Shown here: one piece after another, positions 5,427 to 33,454 of the stretch
How positions within the stretch are numbered: position 1 is the first letter of the stretch
Layout of the letters: every line of letters starts with the position of its first letter
Source of the DNA: a virus
Lineage: Duplodnaviria > Caudoviricetes
Reading direction: 5' to 3' (one strand)
DNA length: 64,000 bases
IMG/VR virus record: IMGVR_UViG_3300029288_001872
Location: 32,001 to 96,000 of that record
The notes under the pieces: generated by a model
What the model saw: only the letters and a program-made list of their open reading frames with translations
Told to the model about the DNA's origin: nothing
The model's database searches: none
Position numbers and translations under genes: made by a program

Positions 5427-6545
5427 TCATTGACATTTCTTTCTTCTCATATCTACTTTCCTGCAACCAATTTCACTATGTGCCAATTCATGACATGGTA
5501 CACAAAGCGTGATGCAGTTATCTAGATCAGCAGATTCAATAGGGTTTAATTCAATACCTTCAAAATGATGACAATGAAGAGAAACTTTAGTTTTCTCACA
5601 TCGTTGACATTGATATGAATCTCTAGCAAAAACCATTTGTCTTAATTCAGGTTGCACTTCGCGATTAAGAGGAACTGTTCCATTCATCTGATTCAAATAA
5701 CCATTTTCTGTCTTTTTGTAACTAGGACAAACATTTTGACATAATTTTGAACAATATAAATTGTGTTCATAAATATCTTTTCCATTTATAAAATCTATTC
5801 TACCACAGACTTGACTCCTAGTAGGAATAAACATTTTTCCGCAATATTTGCAAATACATTCGAGAATAGCTGGATTTTCTCTATTTCTCTTAACCTTCTC
5901 ACCAACACTCAATAATGTCGCTGCATATGTATCATAACTAGCCACTTGTTTATTTTTTGAAAGACCATGTGTAGTAGTAACTTTGCTTGCTCTCTCTAAT
6001 GCTAGACATCCACAAGACTTAGTATGACCGTAAAATAATCTTGAACTTAATATTTCTTTTGTTTTTCCACAATCACATTGACAATTCCAATACCAATAAC
6101 CAAATTTATTTTGCTTTGTTTTTGATATAGCAACAAGTCTATCAAATCTTTTATTGGTCAAATCGTATTGTTCTTTTCTTTGAATACACCCACAAGATTT
6201 AGTTTTACCATTCCATACTTTATTTCCTTTTATTTCTTTCACAGAACCACAATCACACTTAAACATCCAATACCAATCATTGTCTTTCCCCATCTTTGTT
6301 CTATATAAAGCAGTTAATCTATTAAATTTTTGTCCAGTAACATCTTTGAATTTATCATAATATTGTCTTGCACATTGTCTACTACAACAACCTTCAATTT
6401 TCTTTGCTGGAAAAACAAGACAATCTTCACCACAATTGAAACATTTTATTTTTCTATATAAACTTTTTCTAGTTGAATGTTGATATCTAAAAATATCACT
6501 ATTAATCCACTCTCCTTTTGAGAGAACTTCTTCAGTTATCTTCAT
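5427..6545 (-). CDS. HNH homing endonuclease
   Basis: Two 'G.kF.RL...W.C.CDCG...TKSCGC' repeats; C-terminal RDSYQCQRC...HCHH...NCITLCVPCH. Confidence 0.85.
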   Translation of the reverse strand: MKITEEVLSKGEWINSDIFRYQHSTRKSLYRKIKCFNCGEDCLVFPAKKIEGCCSRQCARQYYDKFKDVTGQKFNRLTALYRTKMGKDNDWYWMFKCDCGSVKEIKGNKVWNGKTKSCGCIQRKEQYDLTNKRFDRLVAISKTKQNKFGYWYWNCQCDCGKTKEILSSRLFYGHTKSCGCLALERASKVTTTHGLSKNKQVASYDTYAATLLSVGEKVKRNRENPAILECICKYCGKMFIPTRSQVCGRIDFINGKDIYEHNLYCSKLCQNVCPSYKKTENGYLNQMNGTVPLNREVQPELRQMVFARDSYQCQRCEKTKVSLHCHHFEGIELNPIESADLDNCITLCVPCHELAHSEIGCRKVDMRRKKCQ

Positions 6546-7766
6546 TTATATTGCTACCTTGTAGATATCAAGACTGTTTTTTATAACGTTTTTATCATCA
6601 TTTTTAAAATTAATATCTTCTATCAAACAAGACAATCCCATCCCATTTAAATTAGTTCTAAGTTCTTGCATGATATCAGCAGGTGCAGTAGCCAATTGCG
6701 GTTTAATAGCATTTAATGCGTTTACTCCCTCGTTCAACGCGGCAACGCTTAAGCGGTAGGTCTGGAGGAGTAGAGAATCTTCGCGAAGACTGAAAAAAAA
6801 TTGCCCTCCGCGTTTTTCTGGTGACTGTGACATCTCCCTGTATCCTCTAATAAATCGCCGTGCTCCATCTGCCATTATAGAAAGGTTGTTATTTGCTGCA
6901 CCCCAATCACTTAATGCATATGCCAAATCGGGGTCATAAGGGTTTTCTTTCAATGCTTCGATATTCAATTTATATGCTTCTTCCATTCTATTTTTTTCAT
7001 ATAAAGACTTTATGATCGTAAAAAAAATCGTGGCATTAAATTTCGTTGGATCAATTTTATCCTTCAAACTAATATACCATTTGCCATACTTTATCGATTC
7101 TTCCGTATAACCATGATGTCCAAGAAGCTGGGAGAGGTAAAATAAGGTATCTTTTCTAGTTGGATTCCCTTCCTCATCCAAATCTTCCATCTCTTTCATC
7201 AGCAAACCATGAGTTCTTTCAAACTTCAATCGCATTTTTTCTTCAGACAAATCATATCCATAATGCTCTATTTCAAGCATATCACAAAGAACTGCTGCAC
7301 CTTCAAATATAGGCGAGTTATGAATTCTGTGTTTATATTCTACTTTGCCTTTCTTAAATAATCTAGCGCTATTGCAAGACATTACTGTTTGACCTTGCTG
7401 CATGTCTCTAATTGGAATGGCAACAACATTATATTTGTCTTGTACCATTTCCAACCATTTCTTTAGTTTCTTTATAGAAAAGTCTTTTGACGGAACAATT
7501 TTTTCGTCAGCATCGATTATGAGTATAAAGTCCGCGCCATTCTCTTCAGCATATTTTATTGATTCGTTCCTATGATGTGAAAAATTATCCTGCCAAGGGG
7601 AATGATATAGTTTTACATTATCGAATGATTCTAGAATAGAAATTGTTCGATCAACACTGCCGGTGTCTACACATATGACCTCATCAACGATTCCTTTCAA
7701 GGAGTTTAGGCTTTGGGTTATAAATCTCTCTTCGTCCCGAACCATAAGACACGCTGTAATTTTCAT
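6546..7766 (-). CDS. GT2 glycosyltransferase with TPR-like C-terminus
   Basis: 'CLMVRDEE', 'VDTGSVDRT', 'DNFS..RN', 'IDADE', 'RIH', 'HYGY'. Confidence 0.85.
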   Translation of the reverse strand: MKITACLMVRDEERFITQSLNSLKGIVDEVICVDTGSVDRTISILESFDNVKLYHSPWQDNFSHHRNESIKYAEENGADFILIIDADEKIVPSKDFSIKKLKKWLEMVQDKYNVVAIPIRDMQQGQTVMSCNSARLFKKGKVEYKHRIHNSPIFEGAAVLCDMLEIEHYGYDLSEEKMRLKFERTHGLLMKEMEDLDEEGNPTRKDTLFYLSQLLGHHGYTEESIKYGKWYISLKDKIDPTKFNATIFFTIIKSLYEKNRMEEAYKLNIEALKENPYDPDLAYALSDWGAANNNLSIMADGARRFIRGYREMSQSPEKRGGQFFFSLREDSLLLQTYRLSVAALNEGVNALNAIKPQLATAPADIMQELRTNLNGMGLSCLIEDINFKNDDKNVIKNSLDIYKVAI

Positions 7767-8458
7767 AACACCTCATTTAAATACCGATAATTATATTTTT
7801 GATTTAAAATCAATTGATATAGTGCTTTCCAAGTATTTCTCTTTTTGTTTGCTCTAGAATTACAAGATGTACAAATTGAGATCAAATTATTAGGATGACA
7901 ATTTTTCTTGTCATAATCGACATGGTGTGCTGCTAATCTTTTTGAATTGTTTTTACAAGAAGGGTTTAAACATTTATAGCCATCCCTCTCTTTTATTTCG
8001 TCTCTATATTCTTTGGTCCACAGACAACAATAAGATTCAGTTGAAGTTCCACCCTTCCAATTATGGTTGTTAGGGCCACTTATTTTTAATATGGTCTCTT
8101 CGCTAAGTGGACCTTTCTTTATGCCCAATTGAGATTCAGAAATTTTTATTCTTGTTTCTTGTGTTACTTCATGTCCTAAATGTGCTTCACTCTTCTTCTT
8201 TTTGGTTTCTTCTGAATCTTTTTTCCCTTTTATTTTTTTACTATGATTAAGACACCATTCTAAAGAACTATTTCTATCTTTGGTACTACACCCACGAGAA
8301 CAATAACTCCCATTATTCTCTGGAAGATTAAGACATAATACTCCACAATATTTACATTTATTAATCTTGTATCTTCTATATTGGATACCACAATGATAAA
8401 TAATTGTATAATCATCAATCCATTTACAATTATCAAATATTTCTTGGGTTAATTTCAT
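7763..8458 (-). CDS. NUMOD3 + HNH homing endonuclease
   Basis: SEETKKKKS/ETRIKISE repeats, NWKGG, RDGYKC...HHVDYDKKN...NLISICTSC. Confidence 0.85.
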   Translation of the reverse strand: MKLTQEIFDNCKWIDDYTIIYHCGIQYRRYKINKCKYCGVLCLNLPENNGSYCSRGCSTKDRNSSLEWCLNHSKKIKGKKDSEETKKKKSEAHLGHEVTQETRIKISESQLGIKKGPLSEETILKISGPNNHNWKGGTSTESYCCLWTKEYRDEIKERDGYKCLNPSCKNNSKRLAAHHVDYDKKNCHPNNLISICTSCNSRANKKRNTWKALYQLILNQKYNYRYLNEVL

Positions 8459-8663
8459 ACACCTTCCTTGCTGATCTTCAATTTATCTTTCCTCTTTTAA
8501 ATAGTTTTTATTACCAAATAGTTTCTTCACCTAAACTTTCCCAGTAATGGCGATCCAACTCATGTTCAATCGCTCGCCGCTCTTTCTCTCTATTCATCCC
8601 GGCCAAAATGAAAATCGTCCGGCCCAGACATCCCCGGCAGGTCGTCTTGGTTGCAATAAAGCA

Positions 8664-10133
8664 TTATCTCTTCCTTCTCAATTCATTAAATCCCGCCAGA
8701 CTAATGAGGCCATATCCTACTGGCGTAGAATGAAGACCGTCAGCATCGCAATCAGGGTCCGCAGCCTTTAAGTCCCAGAGATTGACTACTGGCCCTCCGG
8801 GGCGGAATTGGCCAATATAGGCTTTACTGTCCACGATCACCGCTTCAGGGTAACTGACCCTACACATGGATGTCAGGGAGGCATTCCAGGCATCAATGGT
8901 TGACATATCGTTGGCTACGGCGCTCACCGATGCAACCGGCCCCTCATTGACCAATCCCACAGCATTGTCAAATGTTAGGACAAGGGCTGACCCATCCGTG
9001 ACTTGTATTTTTTGGTTGTTCCCAGCTTCACTGAATCCGCCCCACTGTATCCAGGTTCCCAGCGATACGCCATCTACAAGCCACGACCCCGTGGCCCTAG
9101 TGTAGGTCTTGGCTGCTGCATCCACTGTGACATTGGCCACGGTCAGACTGAACTCATCCCCATTGGTATAAGGCGGCATCAGCATAACTAACGGAATGAT
9201 AGAATTTGCCCTGCAAAGGTCTAAAATATCCGCCCAATCAGACAGATGATTTGCTTGGACATAATCTCCGTTTCGCAGGTTGTTTGTGCCGCCATCAATA
9301 ATTGCGATCCGTGGTTTAAGCGCAATACAATCGGCAGCAAACCGAGATAGAATCTCCGAAGTCGTATCACCCCCGGCACCCATGTTTTGAATCGTGTAGG
9401 CTGGATTGAGGAAGTCACGAAACTGCTCAATAATGGTAGAACCGGGAAGGTAGATATCTTGAAGACCCTGTAAAAAAGAATAATTGGCAGGTTGACCGGC
9501 CATACCGGAGTCACCAATGCCCACGATATGAGGTGCCGTGTCCATAAATAACTCAATAGGCACGGCAGTGTTGGCTACAGTGCTCTTGCTTTCCCAATCA
9601 TAGCCGGTAGCATCCGGCGTGGCGTTGCTGATGTAATAGAGGACCATCCCGGCAATGCCGGTGCGGGCACGAAATAGGTTCTGAGTACCGGAGGTCTTAG
9701 TAATCCGTAGTCCGTAATAATCCCCCACCTGGACGCCAGCAATCGGCGTTGAAAGAGTGATAGTTGCAGTGGCTCCAGCTACCAGGGAAGCCAAGAGGTT
9801 TTCCGTGGTGGACCCCACTCGGTCATAAGTTCCCGCTTCATTCCGTCTCCAGACTTTCACATAGACGCCTGTAATTCCTGTGAGAGTCGCCCCGGCATAG
9901 ATTTTGATTTGCGAGATAGTCCCTGCCTGCCGGATGCGGTAAGACGGCCCCTTAAACAGAGCTTCCCTGGCGGTATAGGCCAGGCCGCCGTAGTTCGGAG
10001 TGTCTTCACTAACCGTAGCATAAGGCCCCACAATCACCGGCCCGATGTTAGGGATTAGGTTAGCTACCTCCGGCCAATATAATGGTTTCTTTTTCCCTAC
10101 AAGATTAATCCGGTTCCCACGCAAATAAGGCAT
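8664..10133 (-). CDS. SGNH/GDSL esterase-domain protein, probably virion-associated
   Basis: GDS, G, GTNN and DGLH catalytic blocks; beta-rich N-terminus; markedly higher GC than flanks. Confidence 0.75.
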   Translation of the reverse strand: MPYLRGNRINLVGKKKPLYWPEVANLIPNIGPVIVGPYATVSEDTPNYGGLAYTAREALFKGPSYRIRQAGTISQIKIYAGATLTGITGVYVKVWRRNEAGTYDRVGSTTENLLASLVAGATATITLSTPIAGVQVGDYYGLRITKTSGTQNLFRARTGIAGMVLYYISNATPDATGYDWESKSTVANTAVPIELFMDTAPHIVGIGDSGMAGQPANYSFLQGLQDIYLPGSTIIEQFRDFLNPAYTIQNMGAGGDTTSEILSRFAADCIALKPRIAIIDGGTNNLRNGDYVQANHLSDWADILDLCRANSIIPLVMLMPPYTNGDEFSLTVANVTVDAAAKTYTRATGSWLVDGVSLGTWIQWGGFSEAGNNQKIQVTDGSALVLTFDNAVGLVNEGPVASVSAVANDMSTIDAWNASLTSMCRVSYPEAVIVDSKAYIGQFRPGGPVVNLWDLKAADPDCDADGLHSTPVGYGLISLAGFNELRRKR

Positions 10134-21471: not shown

Positions 21472-22470
21472 TTAAAATCCCAATGTGATTTGACAGGGAA
21501 ACAATAATTTGTCCCCTTTGCTTAAATTTTCTTCTGCTTTCAATGGTCTTAAATTTTTCAATGCCCATGCTCTCTTAAAATCAGAACTTTCAGCATTTTG
21601 AAAATTAAAAAAATTCAACGGAATGATATGGTCTATGTGCCAATAACTACCATAATTATCCCAACTCATTTCTATTGTAAATTGCTTTTCAAGATGCTTT
21701 TTTAATTTCTTTGCTGTATAACCAACCATTTCTTCCCACTTATGCCAATCTTTTGAACTATTCCTTCTTTTCAAACACTTGCTTATGCCACCTTTTACAG
21801 TTCTATTTAATCTAAGAATTGGATCGGTTTTTGTACATTCTTTACAATAACCCATTTTATGAAATTCTGATGTAGTTTTAGTCTTTTTACATATTGGACA
21901 AGTTTTTAAAGTATCACCTTTTTCAAATCTCTTATCCCTATTCTTCACATTTTCTATACTAGAACATTTTTTACATGCATTTTGTAGAGGATAAAAATCA
22001 ATTTCTTTTTTGATTTTTCCACAAGTTCTACATTTTTTATCTTTATTTGGGTCTGGATCAAATTTGGCTAAAGCCTTCTCTTTTTCTTTTTTTAATTTCT
22101 TTTTAGCACATTCCCTACAATAGTTTATAGTCAAAAAATCACTTAATTTATGATCTTCTTTGCATCTTGCACATTTCCTAATTTCATCTGGATGTTCTTT
22201 GTAATATTTTAATTTTTCTTTTCTCCTTTCTCTTTGTAAAGATAATTGACATTCTTTACACATCACATATTTTGGTTTAAATTGATCTGATTTTTTAACT
22301 ATTCCACAAACACTACATTGTATTTCTTCTAATATATTTGTTGATCTATAATCGCCTCTTTTCTGAGCATTGTGATAACATTCATGTGAACAATATTTAT
22401 GTTCATTACGAATACTAGTTTTAAATTTCTTATCACAAAATAAGCAACTATTAAATTTTGTTTTTCCCAT
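21472..22470 (-). CDS. HNH homing endonuclease with CxxC repeats
   Basis: Multiple CxxC; 'HLEKQF...MSWDNYG..WHIDHIIP...NLRPL...NLSK'. Confidence 0.85.
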   Translation of the reverse strand: MGKTKFNSCLFCDKKFKTSIRNEHKYCSHECYHNAQKRGDYRSTNILEEIQCSVCGIVKKSDQFKPKYVMCKECQLSLQRERRKEKLKYYKEHPDEIRKCARCKEDHKLSDFLTINYCRECAKKKLKKEKEKALAKFDPDPNKDKKCRTCGKIKKEIDFYPLQNACKKCSSIENVKNRDKRFEKGDTLKTCPICKKTKTTSEFHKMGYCKECTKTDPILRLNRTVKGGISKCLKRRNSSKDWHKWEEMVGYTAKKLKKHLEKQFTIEMSWDNYGSYWHIDHIIPLNFFNFQNAESSDFKRAWALKNLRPLKAEENLSKGDKLLFPCQITLGF

Positions 22471-22471
22471 T

Positions 22472-23569
22472 TTATAGCAAGTCCTTTAATAATACCAATT
22501 TTGCTGTATCTCTCGTTACTAAATCATCCCATTTAACTTTTCCAGATTTAATTAATTCAAAACGATTTTTTCCAAGTAAGTCAAGTTTAAATTTATCATT
22601 CCTAGTATTAAACCATTCTCCAAAATTACCTTGAGAAAATCCAACTTCTTCTATCGTTCTCCTCCCTCCTGCACCAATAGAAACTGGAGGTCTTATAGTA
22701 TAAGGTCTGTAAATTTCTTCTAACTCCCCAAAATCTTTGATTCCTAGAGATTCCCAAGACACCAAAACTGGCATCCAAAAGCAGCGTCAACGAGGATGAG
22801 CGGGCAAAGGGGGTTTTGATTCATCCAATCTATATTCACGACCATCACTAACAGCACATCGGAGGCAGCAGCCCGTTCCTTTTCTAATGTTCCCATTTTC
22901 GAGCGTGGAGACCCAACGAACTTTTTTTATAATATCACTATTATTTTGGTAAACACTATCCATTGCATAATTGTTGACTGAAGATACATACGTCCTTGCA
23001 AGTGTCACAGCATCATTCCTTGCCATGTCAAAGCCATTGCTAAGGCGATTTGTAAATTCTGCGTATGATTCGCCTTTCAACATTCCAGTCAACACTTCTT
23101 GTCTTATTTCTTCACTCATTGCGCCATATGTGTCTGTCAACCATCCATTCAATAATTTTCCACCAACTGGTTCATTTATAACTATTGTTCTTAATTGTTC
23201 TGCTGTTAATGTTACACTGTTAAAATTATTAATTCTACCACCAAAACTAACTATATCATTCATTGCCAAAATTGTAGACGCTCCCGCTTCACTGGCAATC
23301 TGCGCTATACCACCTTCTAATACATATCTAATTCCTAAAGTCATTCTATTGAAATTATCAAGAAGTGCTATCGTTCTATCTTCTTGCCAATCCGGTATTT
23401 GTGATCCATATTGGTTTAACTTCGCGAGTAGTTCGTTCTCAGCAGACTTGACCGATTTTAATAAAATCTTGAGCGATTCATCTTCCCAAGAAGATAGATC
23501 GTAGAAATATTCTATACTTCTGGCAAGCAGTATTAATTCTATTGTTTCTTGTTCAGTTAGTTTAGTCAT
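22472..23569 (-). CDS. MuF/SPP1 gp7-like head morphogenesis protein, 365 aa with in-frame UGA at 22787-22789 (probable selenocysteine)
   Basis: The ORF-track pieces 22787-23569 and 22472-22774 are in one frame: ...WVSTLE...CLRC...DG...PPLPAHPR-TGA-RCFWMPV...; TGA sits at the first Cys of the HPxCRC motif. Confidence 0.85.
22757..22789 (-). promoter_or_regulatory. Putative bacterial SECIS element
   Basis: UGA-CGCUGCUUUU-GGAUGCCA-[GUUU]-UGGUGUCU: 8-bp stem (3 G-U pairs), loop starting GU, 18 nt from UGA to loop. Confidence 0.65.
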
Positions 23570-26722: not shown

Positions 26723-28339
26723 CTATTTTCCAGGCCCTCTTTTAATTGCGAAAGGCGATCCTACCCCGGCAGGCGACTTTGAAGTATCGGTAGCAACGCT
26801 TGTATACTTTGAAAGGTCAGGAGAACCTATTGACATAGCACCACCAAGAAAATCTTCCTTATCAAACATTGCCATAACTTCTGCCCATTCCCAATCAGCA
26901 TTCAAAATGCCCCTGCGTCTCAATTCTTCAAATACCAATTCTTTAGGCAAAATCTTGAATTGTGCAGCACGAAGCAATACTTCAGCATCCATCGTCTGCA
27001 TCCATCTAAAGTCAGTATTCACATCAACAGACCCACCAGAATTTTCGCCAATATACTTAGAAGTAAATACAAGCAATTGCTCAACAAAATCTTTAAATTC
27101 CAATGCCCAACTTCTTAATGTGCTATCGCTTTCACCAGATGACAATGCTCTTTCAGTAGCAGTCACATTGCCAGTATTAGGCATAAGTAATTGCAAACCG
27201 AACAAAGCCATCTTAGTTTCTAAATCAATCAATTGGGAATGACCAGCATTAATAGCAGCGCCTTGATGTTCTACATATTTAAGTTCTGAGTCTGGATGGT
27301 CAGAATGAATCATTCTATTAGGACCAAGTTCTATTTCGCCTAATTTGTTTGGTTCAGATAATTTCTTGCCAAATAAAATAGGAAGTCTCGTAAAATGCAA
27401 AATATTAGTTTGGTCAGAAGTTGATTGCCAATGAGAAAGATTAAGATAAGCCAAATCTTCCAAAGGAGGTTTAGCAGTCAACGCAGACATTCTTTCTCCT
27501 GGCATAAACACAGCAAGAGGAATTAAATCTTTAATTGAGTTTGTACCAGAATCTATTTTAACCCAATCGCTATTGTCTTTTTGTTTTGTCTTATCTGGTT
27601 CTTCCCACACTTCATATTTCCCAGGTTCAAGCAACCTGATTCTATTAACTTCAACAGTATTATAAGAATTTTCTGGATCATCTTTTTCAAACACTTCTTT
27701 AATTCTTAGTTGAGTAAAAACCTCTTTCCCGTTTCTTCTTTCTGTTTTCCAACCTATAATCGACTCAGTAGGAATATGCACCCAATATGGACGTAAACCT
27801 CTTTTATCTGCTTCGGCCTTAGTCATTGGCCCATCAGTAGGAGGATATTCAGCAAGACAAGTGGTAACACCATCACTTATCCCTCTTGAAAAAACATCTG
27901 CAAGGAATACATCAGCATTGTTGCCTCTTAAATCCATATCTTCTATATAACCATCCTTATTTTTTGTACCACGAATGGCTACTGGAATATCTTCTTTCCA
28001 AGTAATTGGTTTTGAAAATATTTGCCCAGTAAGATATGAAACAGTTCTTCCAAAACCATTAAATAGAATAGTTTTACTTAATCTATTATTATAATTTTCT
28101 GTACTCTCTTTAGGCTCTTTAGGAAGATAAGTAGTGCCTGCTGCAAGCATTGCCTCAGTACCGCCAAGCAAAGTTCTAATTAAATCTAGTCTTGCTTGTT
28201 GTTGGACATAATTATTGCAAGGTTTAGAAATATCTCCTTTTGTACTGGCAGAAGAATCTCCTTTTATATCAATCTGAATCTTCTCCCCCGTGTAAGAGTC
28301 TAATAAAACACGTCCATCGTCATCAATCGCTATTGCCAT
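26723..28339 (-). CDS. Portal protein (DUF4055 type)
   Basis: 'LLGGTEAM.AAG..YLP....E....Y..RL', 'PPLEDLA.LNL.HWQS.SDQ..ILH..R.P', 'TATE'; located between terL and MuF. Confidence 0.85.
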   Translation of the reverse strand: MAIAIDDDGRVLLDSYTGEKIQIDIKGDSSASTKGDISKPCNNYVQQQARLDLIRTLLGGTEAMLAAGTTYLPKEPKESTENYNNRLSKTILFNGFGRTVSYLTGQIFSKPITWKEDIPVAIRGTKNKDGYIEDMDLRGNNADVFLADVFSRGISDGVTTCLAEYPPTDGPMTKAEADKRGLRPYWVHIPTESIIGWKTERRNGKEVFTQLRIKEVFEKDDPENSYNTVEVNRIRLLEPGKYEVWEEPDKTKQKDNSDWVKIDSGTNSIKDLIPLAVFMPGERMSALTAKPPLEDLAYLNLSHWQSTSDQTNILHFTRLPILFGKKLSEPNKLGEIELGPNRMIHSDHPDSELKYVEHQGAAINAGHSQLIDLETKMALFGLQLLMPNTGNVTATERALSSGESDSTLRSWALEFKDFVEQLLVFTSKYIGENSGGSVDVNTDFRWMQTMDAEVLLRAAQFKILPKELVFEELRRRGILNADWEWAEVMAMFDKEDFLGGAMSIGSPDLSKYTSVATDTSKSPAGVGSPFAIKRGPGK

Positions 28340-31282: not shown

Positions 31283-33454
31283 TTACCACAAGATTTCAAC
31301 CGAGCGTCCTTGATTCTCATCGATGGGAAAGCGTTTTGCACAGTAGTAGGAAAGGGCGTCTGAGGCATGGCTTATAGTAGGATCGCTTTTGTCAATATCT
31401 ACACCGCCAGAAAGTATTTTTGTCCCCTCAATATCACGGATGATATTAGGACATCTTCGATTGTCAAATTTCATCCGTACAACATTAGACATTGAAAGAA
31501 GTCTCGCGTTGGTCGCGTTGATCCTTGATCTGACCCTCGGGTTGCTATCATCCACGAAAAGGTACGTTCTTTCTGGATTGAAATGTGAAAATAGACATTT
31601 TTTTACAATCGACCAATCACTGCCTTCAACCTTTGCAGAACCACCAGAACCACCAGTGGCGTCGCCATACAGATGGATTTCTCCCTCATGCATACCCCAA
31701 TCATAAATTAGCTTATTACACACAGCAACAGTGTTGCTATTTTGAGGAATATGTACTTCTCCAATTACACCAGTGCCAATCACAGGACGACTATATTCTT
31801 TGTTATCTTTTTTATCATAAACGGTTTCAACAACCCCAGGCATAATTTGTTCTTGACATACAACAGCAACACCAGGATTAATGTTAAAGTCAAAACAAAA
31901 AACTAATGGTAGTTTCTTATTATATTCAAGTGGACAACAATGAAGTCTTTCGTCAAATGGGTAATATGCTCTCCCAGCGAAGTGACAAAAATCCGCGCAA
32001 AATTCTTGCCGGAAGGTCATCTCATCAAGAAACTCTCGTGCTGATGCTATTTCTTCATCGTCAAGTATGTCAGCCGAAATCCAATGGAATTGATCCCACT
32101 CACTCTGTGTCCCTTTTTGTTTTGCTTCTCTAACTTTCTGTTTTGCATATTCAGATAATTCATAATAATGGTTCCTGCCCTCTGGCACCCCAATAAAGTC
32201 ACACCATCCTTTTCTATCAGACAGTGCAGGTCGCACATGCTCAGGCCATGCCCTAGACTTCATATTGCCATATTCATCCAGTACACCACCATCCCAGGGT
32301 GATCCCTCAATACGCTCAGGTTTGTCCATCCCAATAACCCACAATTCAGCACTACTCTTAAACTTAATCACCATATCTGATTCACGAATAGCTGTTCTTC
32401 TATCCCTTCCTGGCAATGCCCAATCAGGCACCATGGCTTTCAGATCAGCCCAATAAATACGTTTTGCTTGTCCCCATGTAGGCGCAGCCACAAAATATCT
32501 TGGCCCATAATCTTTAGAACAACTCATAGGGTCCAATGTACATGGCAATGGCATATCTATATTAGTATTCCATGGATCAATACATCTCAATATCAATTTT
32601 CTTTTTGCCAATTCAGTATTATGTGTGACTATTCCATTAGCAAGAAAATTGTGATAATCTTTAACTGTTAGATCGTAAGTTTTTTCTGGTTTAACTTCCT
32701 TTACTGATAATACTCTTTCCCATGTTATATCTGCATTAAGTAAAAAGTTGTATAAGTTTAAGTCTAAATATTTCTTTATTTTATTTAATTGATGTAAAGA
32801 TATTCTTTCCATACATTGTTTAGTATTTCTATCTTTAAAACCCCTTTGCCAATCTTTAATTACTTTTAATAAATCTGATGGCGCGTCTTTTATATTTTCA
32901 TCATATCCTTTTCTATATCCTTGATGTTTAACTGGTTCATATTTGGTATTATTCACTACTTCATCATAAGTCAATGGAATAAATTCACAACCATCAGAAT
33001 ATTGTTTAGACACTGCTACTAACATTCCTCTTTCTAGATTACCTGCTTCAACCCATTTTTTATTAGCCCAGATTGGATGGTTAGAAGTACATTTTAAATA
33101 TCTATATGCTTCATTAGTCCCTGATAATTTTATTTGTACAATAGACTTCTTTCCATTCTTTAAAACGTGCTCTACTTCTTTAGGCTCCAAAACATACATT
33201 GGATTGGCAGACAATACCATGTCACCAGCTTTAATTTTCTCTACTGGTTTTTGTTTGCCATTGGCCATAGTAACAAGTGTGCCTTTGGCAAGACATTTTC
33301 CAGAACGCCTTCCTGCTGGAACTACTTTAAATCTGGCTGGACTGTTTATAAGTCTAGATTGCTCATCGTGATCTCTTAATTTGGTCCATCTAGCCGGAAA
33401 ATCATTTCCAAGTTGTTTTGACTCTGATGCTCCATAACTGTGTTTAGGTGACAT
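31283..33454 (-). CDS. terL: Terminase large subunit (intein-containing)
   Basis: Walker A AGRRSGK|T, 'VAAPT..QAK', Walker B 'VLDEY', 'FRQE', RNase H 'DFN', 'H..DA..Y'. Confidence 0.92.
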   Translation of the reverse strand: MSPKHSYGASESKQLGNDFPARWTKLRDHDEQSRLINSPARFKVVPAGRRSGKCLAKGTLVTMANGKQKPVEKIKAGDMVLSANPMYVLEPKEVEHVLKNGKKSIVQIKLSGTNEAYRYLKCTSNHPIWANKKWVEAGNLERGMLVAVSKQYSDGCEFIPLTYDEVVNNTKYEPVKHQGYRKGYDENIKDAPSDLLKVIKDWQRGFKDRNTKQCMERISLHQLNKIKKYLDLNLYNFLLNADITWERVLSVKEVKPEKTYDLTVKDYHNFLANGIVTHNTELAKRKLILRCIDPWNTNIDMPLPCTLDPMSCSKDYGPRYFVAAPTWGQAKRIYWADLKAMVPDWALPGRDRRTAIRESDMVIKFKSSAELWVIGMDKPERIEGSPWDGGVLDEYGNMKSRAWPEHVRPALSDRKGWCDFIGVPEGRNHYYELSEYAKQKVREAKQKGTQSEWDQFHWISADILDDEEIASAREFLDEMTFRQEFCADFCHFAGRAYYPFDERLHCCPLEYNKKLPLVFCFDFNINPGVAVVCQEQIMPGVVETVYDKKDNKEYSRPVIGTGVIGEVHIPQNSNTVAVCNKLIYDWGMHEGEIHLYGDATGGSGGSAKVEGSDWSIVKKCLFSHFNPERTYLFVDDSNPRVRSRINATNARLLSMSNVVRMKFDNRRCPNIIRDIEGTKILSGGVDIDKSDPTISHASDALSYYCAKRFPIDENQGRSVEILW
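32618..33295 (-). mobile_element. Intein (226 aa) inserted in the terminase P-loop; no recognisable LAGLIDADG domain
   Basis: Starts CLAKGTLV, block B 'TSNHP', ends 'NFLANGIVTHN', +1 residue Thr. Confidence 0.9.

Follow-up and report, generated by a model that had tools for sequence, protein, structure and literature searches.

The window, as we call the whole 64,000-nt stretch of DNA analyzed here, is part of a 189,632-bp IMG/VR virus record with a GC content of 34% that CheckV rates as 100% complete. Its minus strand carries a head module in which a MuF/SPP1-gp7-like gene lies 3′ of the genes for the large terminase subunit and the portal protein, the position expected of MuF/gp7 genes (Table 1), and this is the sole head-morphogenesis gene of the module. 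The ORF track gives the gene as two ORFs, 22787–23569 (260 aa) and 22472–22774 (100 aa). The initial annotation had read them as two parts of one frame separated by a lone TGA, and this reading holds: the frame consists of 365 codons plus the terminal stop, and its single internal stop is the TGA at codon 261. A frameshift between the two ORFs was ruled out because both parts lie in one frame. The joined protein matches Pfam Phage_Mu_F (PF04233) over residues 154–264 with 30.7 bits, above the curated cut-off of 29.6 bits, and PHROG 241 (“head morphogenesis”) over residues 108–355 with E = 2.9e-41; the homology thus crosses the stop at codon 261.

Table 1 Positions of the MuF gene, its motifs, the putative hairpin and the neighboring head genes in the window.
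Feature	Position	Strand	Remark
MuF/SPP1-gp7-like head-morphogenesis gene, complete	22472..23569	-	one frame; PF04233; PHROG 241
CxxC (C235, C238), invariant, partner of the HxxCxC motif	22856..22867	-	25-member alignment
His258 of the HxxCxC motif, invariant	22796..22798	-	25-member alignment
In-frame UGA, codon 261, first Cys of HxxCxC	22787..22789	-	proposed selenocysteine codon
Second Cys codon (TGC, C263) of the CRC motif	22781..22783	-	TGA in relative L002
C-terminal 104 codons 3′ of the UGA	22475..22786	-	homologous to the C-terminus of full-length relatives
SECIS-like hairpin, putative	22757..22776	-	GGAUGCCA / GUUU / UGGUGUCU
Hairpin 5′ arm	22769-22776	-	GGAUGCCA
Hairpin loop	22765-22768	-	GUUU
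Hairpin 3′ arm	22757-22764	-	UGGUGUCU
Portal protein gene, head module	26723..28339	-	PHROG 145, E 3.3e-108
Terminase large subunit gene, head module	31283..33454	-	PHROG 2, E 2.3e-25

The TGA stands in the context CAT CCT CGT TGA CGC TGC (H-P-R-*-R-C). When 25 full-length family members were aligned, seven columns were invariant (C235, C238, P253, P256, H258, C261 and C263), with the qualification that the column of codon 261 is Cys in 22 of the 25 members and that its other three rows are read-through or typed as C. The stop had been said to lie on the conserved Cys of an HPxCRC motif, and this was confirmed by the alignment, in which the column is Cys and relatives have TGY at the codon. 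The dN/dS ratio 3′ of the UGA was 0.2–0.3 (window versus L001, and L001 versus L002), and by this measure the stretch that follows the TGA is under purifying selection. Residue 255 (about 22805–22807) is Leu in the window and in L005 and a fifth Cys (PPCP) in L001 and L002, so this additional Cys is not invariant across the family.

TGA is otherwise an ordinary stop codon in this phage. Among 174 non-overlapping long ORFs of the whole phage, 110 end in TAA, 42 in TGA and 22 in TAG, and the three stops that the initial annotation had named as examples of normal termination (5427, 16513 and 29777) are indeed all TGA. When the whole phage was scanned for long frames broken by one or two TGAs, MuF was the sole convincing case. 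The phage carries five tRNA genes (Arg-tct, Pro-tgg, Gly-tcc, Leu-caa and Met), and none of them is a suppressor with the anticodon UCA. Neither tRNA-Sec nor selB nor selD was found in the 189,632-bp record.

Relatives of the gene were collected from IMG/VR, ENA and Logan assemblies. The initial annotation had proposed to compare them for TGA versus TGY at the broken codon, and both states occur. At the first Cys of the CxC motif, TGA was found in L005/L006 (ENA, 51% identity to the window, HPR-TGA-RC), L007 (Logan, 38% identity, HQQ-TGA-RC), L017 (an 84-kb IMG/VR record, HHR-TGA-RC) and L040 (Logan, HAR-TGA-RC). In L002 (IMG/VR, 73% identity to the window) the switch is at the neighboring, second Cys, giving HINCR-TGA. 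Together with the window there are six TGA lineages, five with TGA at the first Cys (the window, L005, L007, L017 and L040) and one at the second (L002), and a further 21 or so distinct loci read TGY at each of the two Cys. Apart from the TGA in CxC, in-frame stops were seen neither in the window gene nor in the MuF genes of the relatives, and in all six TGA lineages 103–106 homologous codons remain open 3′ of the UGA.

In L017, whose TGA-bearing MuF gene is at L017:1504–3300, read-through would give a longer product of about 599 residues with an additional domain at the C-terminus. This extension of about 230 residues follows the MuF domain, much as in MuF proteins fused to cargo or toxins, and a Pfam search with it returned no family. 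tRNA-Sec was not found in the L017 record.

In many relatives an intein sits exactly at the first Cys of CRC (HPR | C...intein...N | CRC). It was seen in L033–L039 (for example, L033:1501–3873) and in protein P0034, and about 20 of the top 150 representatives are of this type, with a length of about 690 aa and two matched stretches. The codon that turns into UGA is thus also an intein homing hotspot.

Further searches added little to the set of broken genes. A scan of metagenome contigs with a three-sequence alignment returned just the two contigs already known from IMG/VR, a search for split forms with the 100-aa downstream ORF returned the query alone, within the limits of its word index, and a further homologue search by profile gave no additional truncated forms. 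The named cellular homologues are all Cys forms and come from Desulfobaculum, Desulfovibrio and Desulfocapsa only. When genome contigs were scanned with the family alignment, one Cys-form locus was found, in a Desulfocapsa MAG in which selB is present, and a profile search of 400 further genomes of the phylum of this MAG showed no other close homologue. An anaerobic leachate well of a landfill (3300014205 = LW3; PMC9723747) is the source of the closest relatives. The two related contigs are not in the lists given in the supplement of the landfill CRISPR virus-host paper.

Downstream of the TGA we analyzed the RNA that could serve as a signal for recoding. The 8-bp stem with a GUUU loop that the initial annotation had placed 10 nt past the UGA is present (Table 1). 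Three of its eight pairs are G-U, and its energy in isolation is −7.9 kcal/mol. In the E. coli fdhF SECIS, a minimal stem-loop begins 11 nt after the UGA, and the apical G23 and U24 contact SelB (PMC8659212). The fdhF-like spacing that had been claimed was likewise borne out: counting the U of UGA as nucleotide 1, the GU of the loop is at nt 22/23 in the window and at 23/24 in fdhF. The minimum free energy (MFE) fold of the surrounding 71 nt does not include the hairpin, and the z score of this fold against shuffled sequences is 0.37. Seen alone, the window hairpin is unremarkable, and its significance comes solely from comparison with the relatives.

For this comparison we used our own scanner, which models uninterrupted stems: the stem had to be contiguous and 5 bp or longer, the loop had to have 3–7 nt with GU at loop positions 1–2 or 2–3, and the loop had to start 14–30 nt after the codon. 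Under these criteria, which are partly post hoc as they were set after four or five of the six examples had been seen, a GU-loop hairpin is present in 6/6 TGA genes (6–8 bp, −5.3 to −7.9 kcal/mol, 17–24 nt after the UGA). One of the six, L040, came to light only once the criteria were set, and it passes them. Of 21 Cys forms, one has a strong GU-loop hairpin (L022) and one more a weak one (L020), and even without the GU rule only two of the 21 (L022 and L025) reach −5.3 kcal/mol. Conservation of the hairpin among TGA homologues had been named beforehand as a check, and the outcome is that all six have it and nearly all Cys homologues lack it (Fisher's exact test, about 1e-4). GU-loop hairpins of that stability occur at 0.36% of phage-genome positions and at 1.0% in the related loci, and among the 42 phage ORFs that end in TGA, a stable hairpin combined with an open frame was found in MuF only. 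The sole other stable scanner match at TGA stops of the phage, a 12-bp GC-rich stem of −18.5 kcal/mol lying outside the window directly after a TGA-terminated ORF (G000, about 111609–111670), is probably an intrinsic terminator. The position-specific hairpin test is the only one that discriminates TGA from Cys forms; by plain folding energy (MFE of the 54 nt that follow the codon) the two groups are not distinguished (Mann-Whitney p = 0.15). A search of Rfam with the hairpin region gave nothing relevant.

In all six genes the loop GU begins a Val codon of a conserved P-V-L-V-S-W segment, and it falls at nt 22/23 in the window, L017 and L002 and at nt 28/29 in L005, L007 and L040. L002 and L005 share one Val codon and have their UGAs two codons apart, and they therefore belong to different spacing classes. 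Relative to the Cys-form sister L001, the arms of the window hairpin were made by TTT>TGG, TTG>ATG and a switch of Ser codon family, AGT>TCT; that is, by non-synonymous changes together with the Ser-family switch. The differences between the stems of L002 (CCAACU/AGUUGG) and L005 (CCGGCU/AGCUGG) keep the pairing. The bulged U (U17) of the upper stem of the E. coli type is not universal outside Enterobacteria. The one Cys form with a strong hairpin, L022, has UCCCGAC-CGUG-GUUGGGG around 2233–2300, with −7.9 kcal/mol, a GU loop and the right distance, and it may be a recent reversion from Sec to Cys.

In a maximum-likelihood tree of 27 sequences, six changes of state are needed, at least four of them forced by well-supported branches. 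Constraining the six TGA rows to one clade made the tree worse by 279 log-likelihood units (AU p = 2e-5), so a single TGA clade is rejected, and on this tree the TGA states appear to have arisen in four to six independent switches. The window (TGA at the first Cys), L001 (Cys at both) and L002 (TGA at the second Cys) form a tight clade with 100% support, whose members are 73–79% identical proteins, L001 being 79% identical to the window. The presence of all three states within so tight a clade implies that the switches are recent. It is also hard to ascribe the pattern to chance, since nonsense mutations striking at random would not, five or six times over, hit just two adjacent invariant codons among 365.

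Taken with the hairpins, these observations point to a bacterial-type selenoprotein gene in which UGA 261 would be read as selenocysteine (Sec) with the SelA, SelB, SelC and SelD of the host, a reading to which we give a probability of roughly 80%. Metagenomic surveys of selenoproteomes have recognized new families by at least two TGA sequences, homologues with Cys in the same column, and a stem-loop 3′ of the TGA whose apex carries a G (PMC1976440); in the MuF family we found six TGA lineages, about 21 Cys forms and, with our own scanner, hairpins in 6/6 TGA genes. As expected of a selenoprotein gene, both the frame and the homology continue past the in-frame UGA. When a Sec-competent host is infected, host SelB carrying Sec-tRNA(Sec) would bind the GU-loop hairpin 10 nt past the UGA and deliver Sec to the ribosome in competition with RF2. 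The product would be a full-length, 365-residue minor head protein of the MuF/gp7 type with Sec at codon 261 and the motif U-R-C instead of the C-R-C that is invariant in the family. Termination at the UGA would instead leave a 260-residue fragment without both motif cysteines and without the C-terminal 104 residues. Because the phage has no Sec machinery of its own, the full-length product would need selenium and the SelA, SelB, SelC and SelD of the host. The comparative evidence thus supports the main interpretation of the initial annotation, while its proposals of decoding by host SelA/SelB/tRNA-Sec, of a metal-binding site and of a selenium or host checkpoint are inferences.

CxxC...HxxCxC, with its four invariant Cys and one invariant His, is probably a metal site of the zinc type or a redox site. 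In an AlphaFold model (mean pLDDT 70), a short helix begins with the CxxC, and the CxC directly precedes a strand, a predicted geometry that would fit a site of the zinc-knuckle type. Searches of the PDB by sequence and by Foldseek with this model gave no informative match for the MuF protein. Since either CxC position can be Sec (U-x-C in the window, C-x-U in L002), the sequences suggest that the two positions work as a pair, be it in redox chemistry or in binding the same metal.

Several points count against the selenoprotein reading. Four to six independent births of a UGA with its SECIS are unusually many for a selenoprotein family, and Sec in a seemingly structural Cys4/His site is atypical. 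The hairpins are small (6–8 bp) and do not make the 54 nt after the codon fold more stably than in Cys forms, the window hairpin is missing from its MFE fold, and the hairpin criteria were partly post hoc. We nevertheless lean, with less assurance than for the gene in the window, towards a wider scenario in which phages of Sec-using anaerobes would repeatedly convert one Cys of CxC in their portal-associated head protein to Sec, on each occasion building a minimal SECIS de novo from the codons of the P-V-L-V-S-W segment.

Other explanations for an interrupted MuF gene were weighed against the same evidence. A programmed leaky stop, at which a near-cognate Cys or Trp tRNA would yield a little full-length MuF under stimulation by the hairpin, could fall anywhere, for example at the invariant Trp219, but all six UGAs are on the two CxC cysteines, and Trp at an invariant Cys would probably inactivate the protein. 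Hairpin-stimulated read-through by ordinary tRNAs is, to our knowledge, not an established bacterial mechanism. It is true that MuF/gp7 proteins are low-copy components of the virion, for which low read-through could suffice, that the base after the UGA is C in four of the six genes, which in E. coli makes for weak termination, and that no Sec machinery was found on the phage. On the other hand, a GU-loop hairpin at fdhF-like spacing is the signature of SelB (PMC8659212), and we regard the leaky stop as unlikely.

A gene that is truly split or truncated would make the 260-aa protein, perhaps together with a separately initiated protein of about 100 aa. Gene callers do give two ORFs, and the window has an in-frame AUG 12 nt after the UGA (22772–22774), but in the relatives such restart codons are at other positions or absent. 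The break occurs on invariant residues and not in a linker in six lineages, where the two motif cysteines, invariant in 25/25 aligned members, would be lost or split apart, and a split leaves unexplained why the hairpin tracks the TGA. We therefore consider a real split quite improbable.

Even less credible is a TGA introduced by faulty sequencing or assembly, or a pseudogene created by a private inactivating mutation. Although TGC>TGA is one substitution and the record was assembled from a metagenome, TGA is confined to these two codons in six assemblies made independently from different samples (IMG, ENA and Logan), with intact downstream frames, purifying selection and matched hairpins, in what is the only head-morphogenesis gene of the head module. 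An alternative code that gives TGA a sense meaning (table 4 or 25, or TGA = Cys) can practically be dismissed: recoded phages with in-frame TGA in late genes exist, but here TGA ends 42/174 long ORFs, a single long gene in the whole 190 kb has an internal TGA, 0/5 phage tRNAs have a UCA anticodon, and other TGA stops in the related loci are followed by the next stop within 0–47 codons.

The comparison with recoded phages can be extended. In stop-codon recoding of phages, TAG or TGA is reassigned genome-wide, often with suppressor tRNAs. Like those cases, the MuF gene is a late structural gene with an in-frame stop in a large uncultured phage; unlike them, it involves a single, Cys-specific site in a phage that uses TGA as a normal stop and has no suppressor tRNA.

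Compared with known bacterial selenoprotein genes (E. coli fdhF; PMC1976440, PMC8659212), MuF shares the alignment of the UGA with a Cys of the homologues, a stem-loop inside the coding sequence whose stem starts 10–18 nt after the UGA, a GU in the apical loop at about nt 22–29, and the continuation of the ORF in frame. It differs in four respects: the carrier is a phage without its own Sec machinery, the protein is a virion morphogenesis protein and not an oxidoreductase, the hairpins are minimal (6–8 bp), and the UGA arose repeatedly, on either of two neighboring Cys codons.

Viral selenoproteins are known from poxviruses, namely the glutathione peroxidases (GPx) of molluscum contagiosum and fowlpox, the SECIS of fowlpox lying within the coding region (PMC8310308). 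There, as proposed here for MuF, the UGA of a viral gene is decoded as Sec by host machinery (PMC8310308). However, poxviruses are viruses of eukaryotes, their GPx genes were captured from cells and their SECIS elements are of the eukaryotic type, whereas MuF would be a native structural gene of a phage with a SECIS of the bacterial type. A 2021 review of viral recoding gives the poxvirus GPx genes as the sole viral selenoproteins (PMC8310308), and our full-text literature search found no described phage-encoded selenoprotein; the deep-Sep and BSepDB papers do not mention phages.

Phage Mu F and SPP1 gp7 are minor head proteins (PF04233), and polymorphic toxins fused to MuF have also been described (PMC3482391). 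The window gene resembles Mu F and SPP1 gp7 in its domain match, its CxxC...HxxCxC motif and its position after terminase and portal, as does L017 in its cargo-like C-terminal extension. The described proteins have Cys at both CxC positions, unlike the window gene with its UGA, and we found no description of a Sec form.

If the selenoprotein reading is true, bacterial viruses encode a selenoprotein family that is built into the virus particle, and phages exploit the SelB/SECIS recoding of the host with none of its components encoded by the phage. The selenium metabolism of the host would then be a requirement for phage assembly, an essential head protein being gated by host SelB, Sec-tRNA and selenium status; in L017, UGA decoding would also gate production of the fused, cargo-like domain of about 230 residues. 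This would bear on host-range prediction and on phage ecology in anaerobic habitats. It would likewise affect annotation, as such genes are now called as two ORFs or as truncated proteins.

If the repeated switching from Cys to Sec is also true, SECIS elements would be born and lost on short evolutionary time scales; that birth and loss could be so fast follows from the presence of the Sec-at-first, Cys and Sec-at-second states in one clade of 73–79% identical proteins. Natural series of this kind, in which Cys has very recently given way to Sec beside a minimal SECIS hairpin, are rare, and the family could be used to find the least RNA structure that SelB requires and the reason for the preference for Sec at CxC. 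The switches would mark the CxC motif of MuF, which is also a hotspot of intein insertion, as functionally critical.

Several other features were seen in the window. One nucleotide downstream of MuF on the minus strand is a 332-aa gene (21472–22470) that contains numerous CxxC pairs, ends in an HNH-like motif (HIDHIIP...N...N) at the C-terminus and looks like an insertion of the homing-endonuclease type into the head module; Pfam searches with the two genes flanking MuF gave no family. A glycosyltransferase-like gene (6546–7766) abuts an HNH endonuclease gene (5427–6545) in the same frame on the minus strand, the two being parted by the stop of the first gene alone, with the ATG of the second directly next to it. 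Positions 8001–10000 form a local GC island (46% versus about 33% elsewhere) that covers a 489-aa ORF (8664–10133) with a weak lipase-like PHROG match, which may be a recent acquisition.
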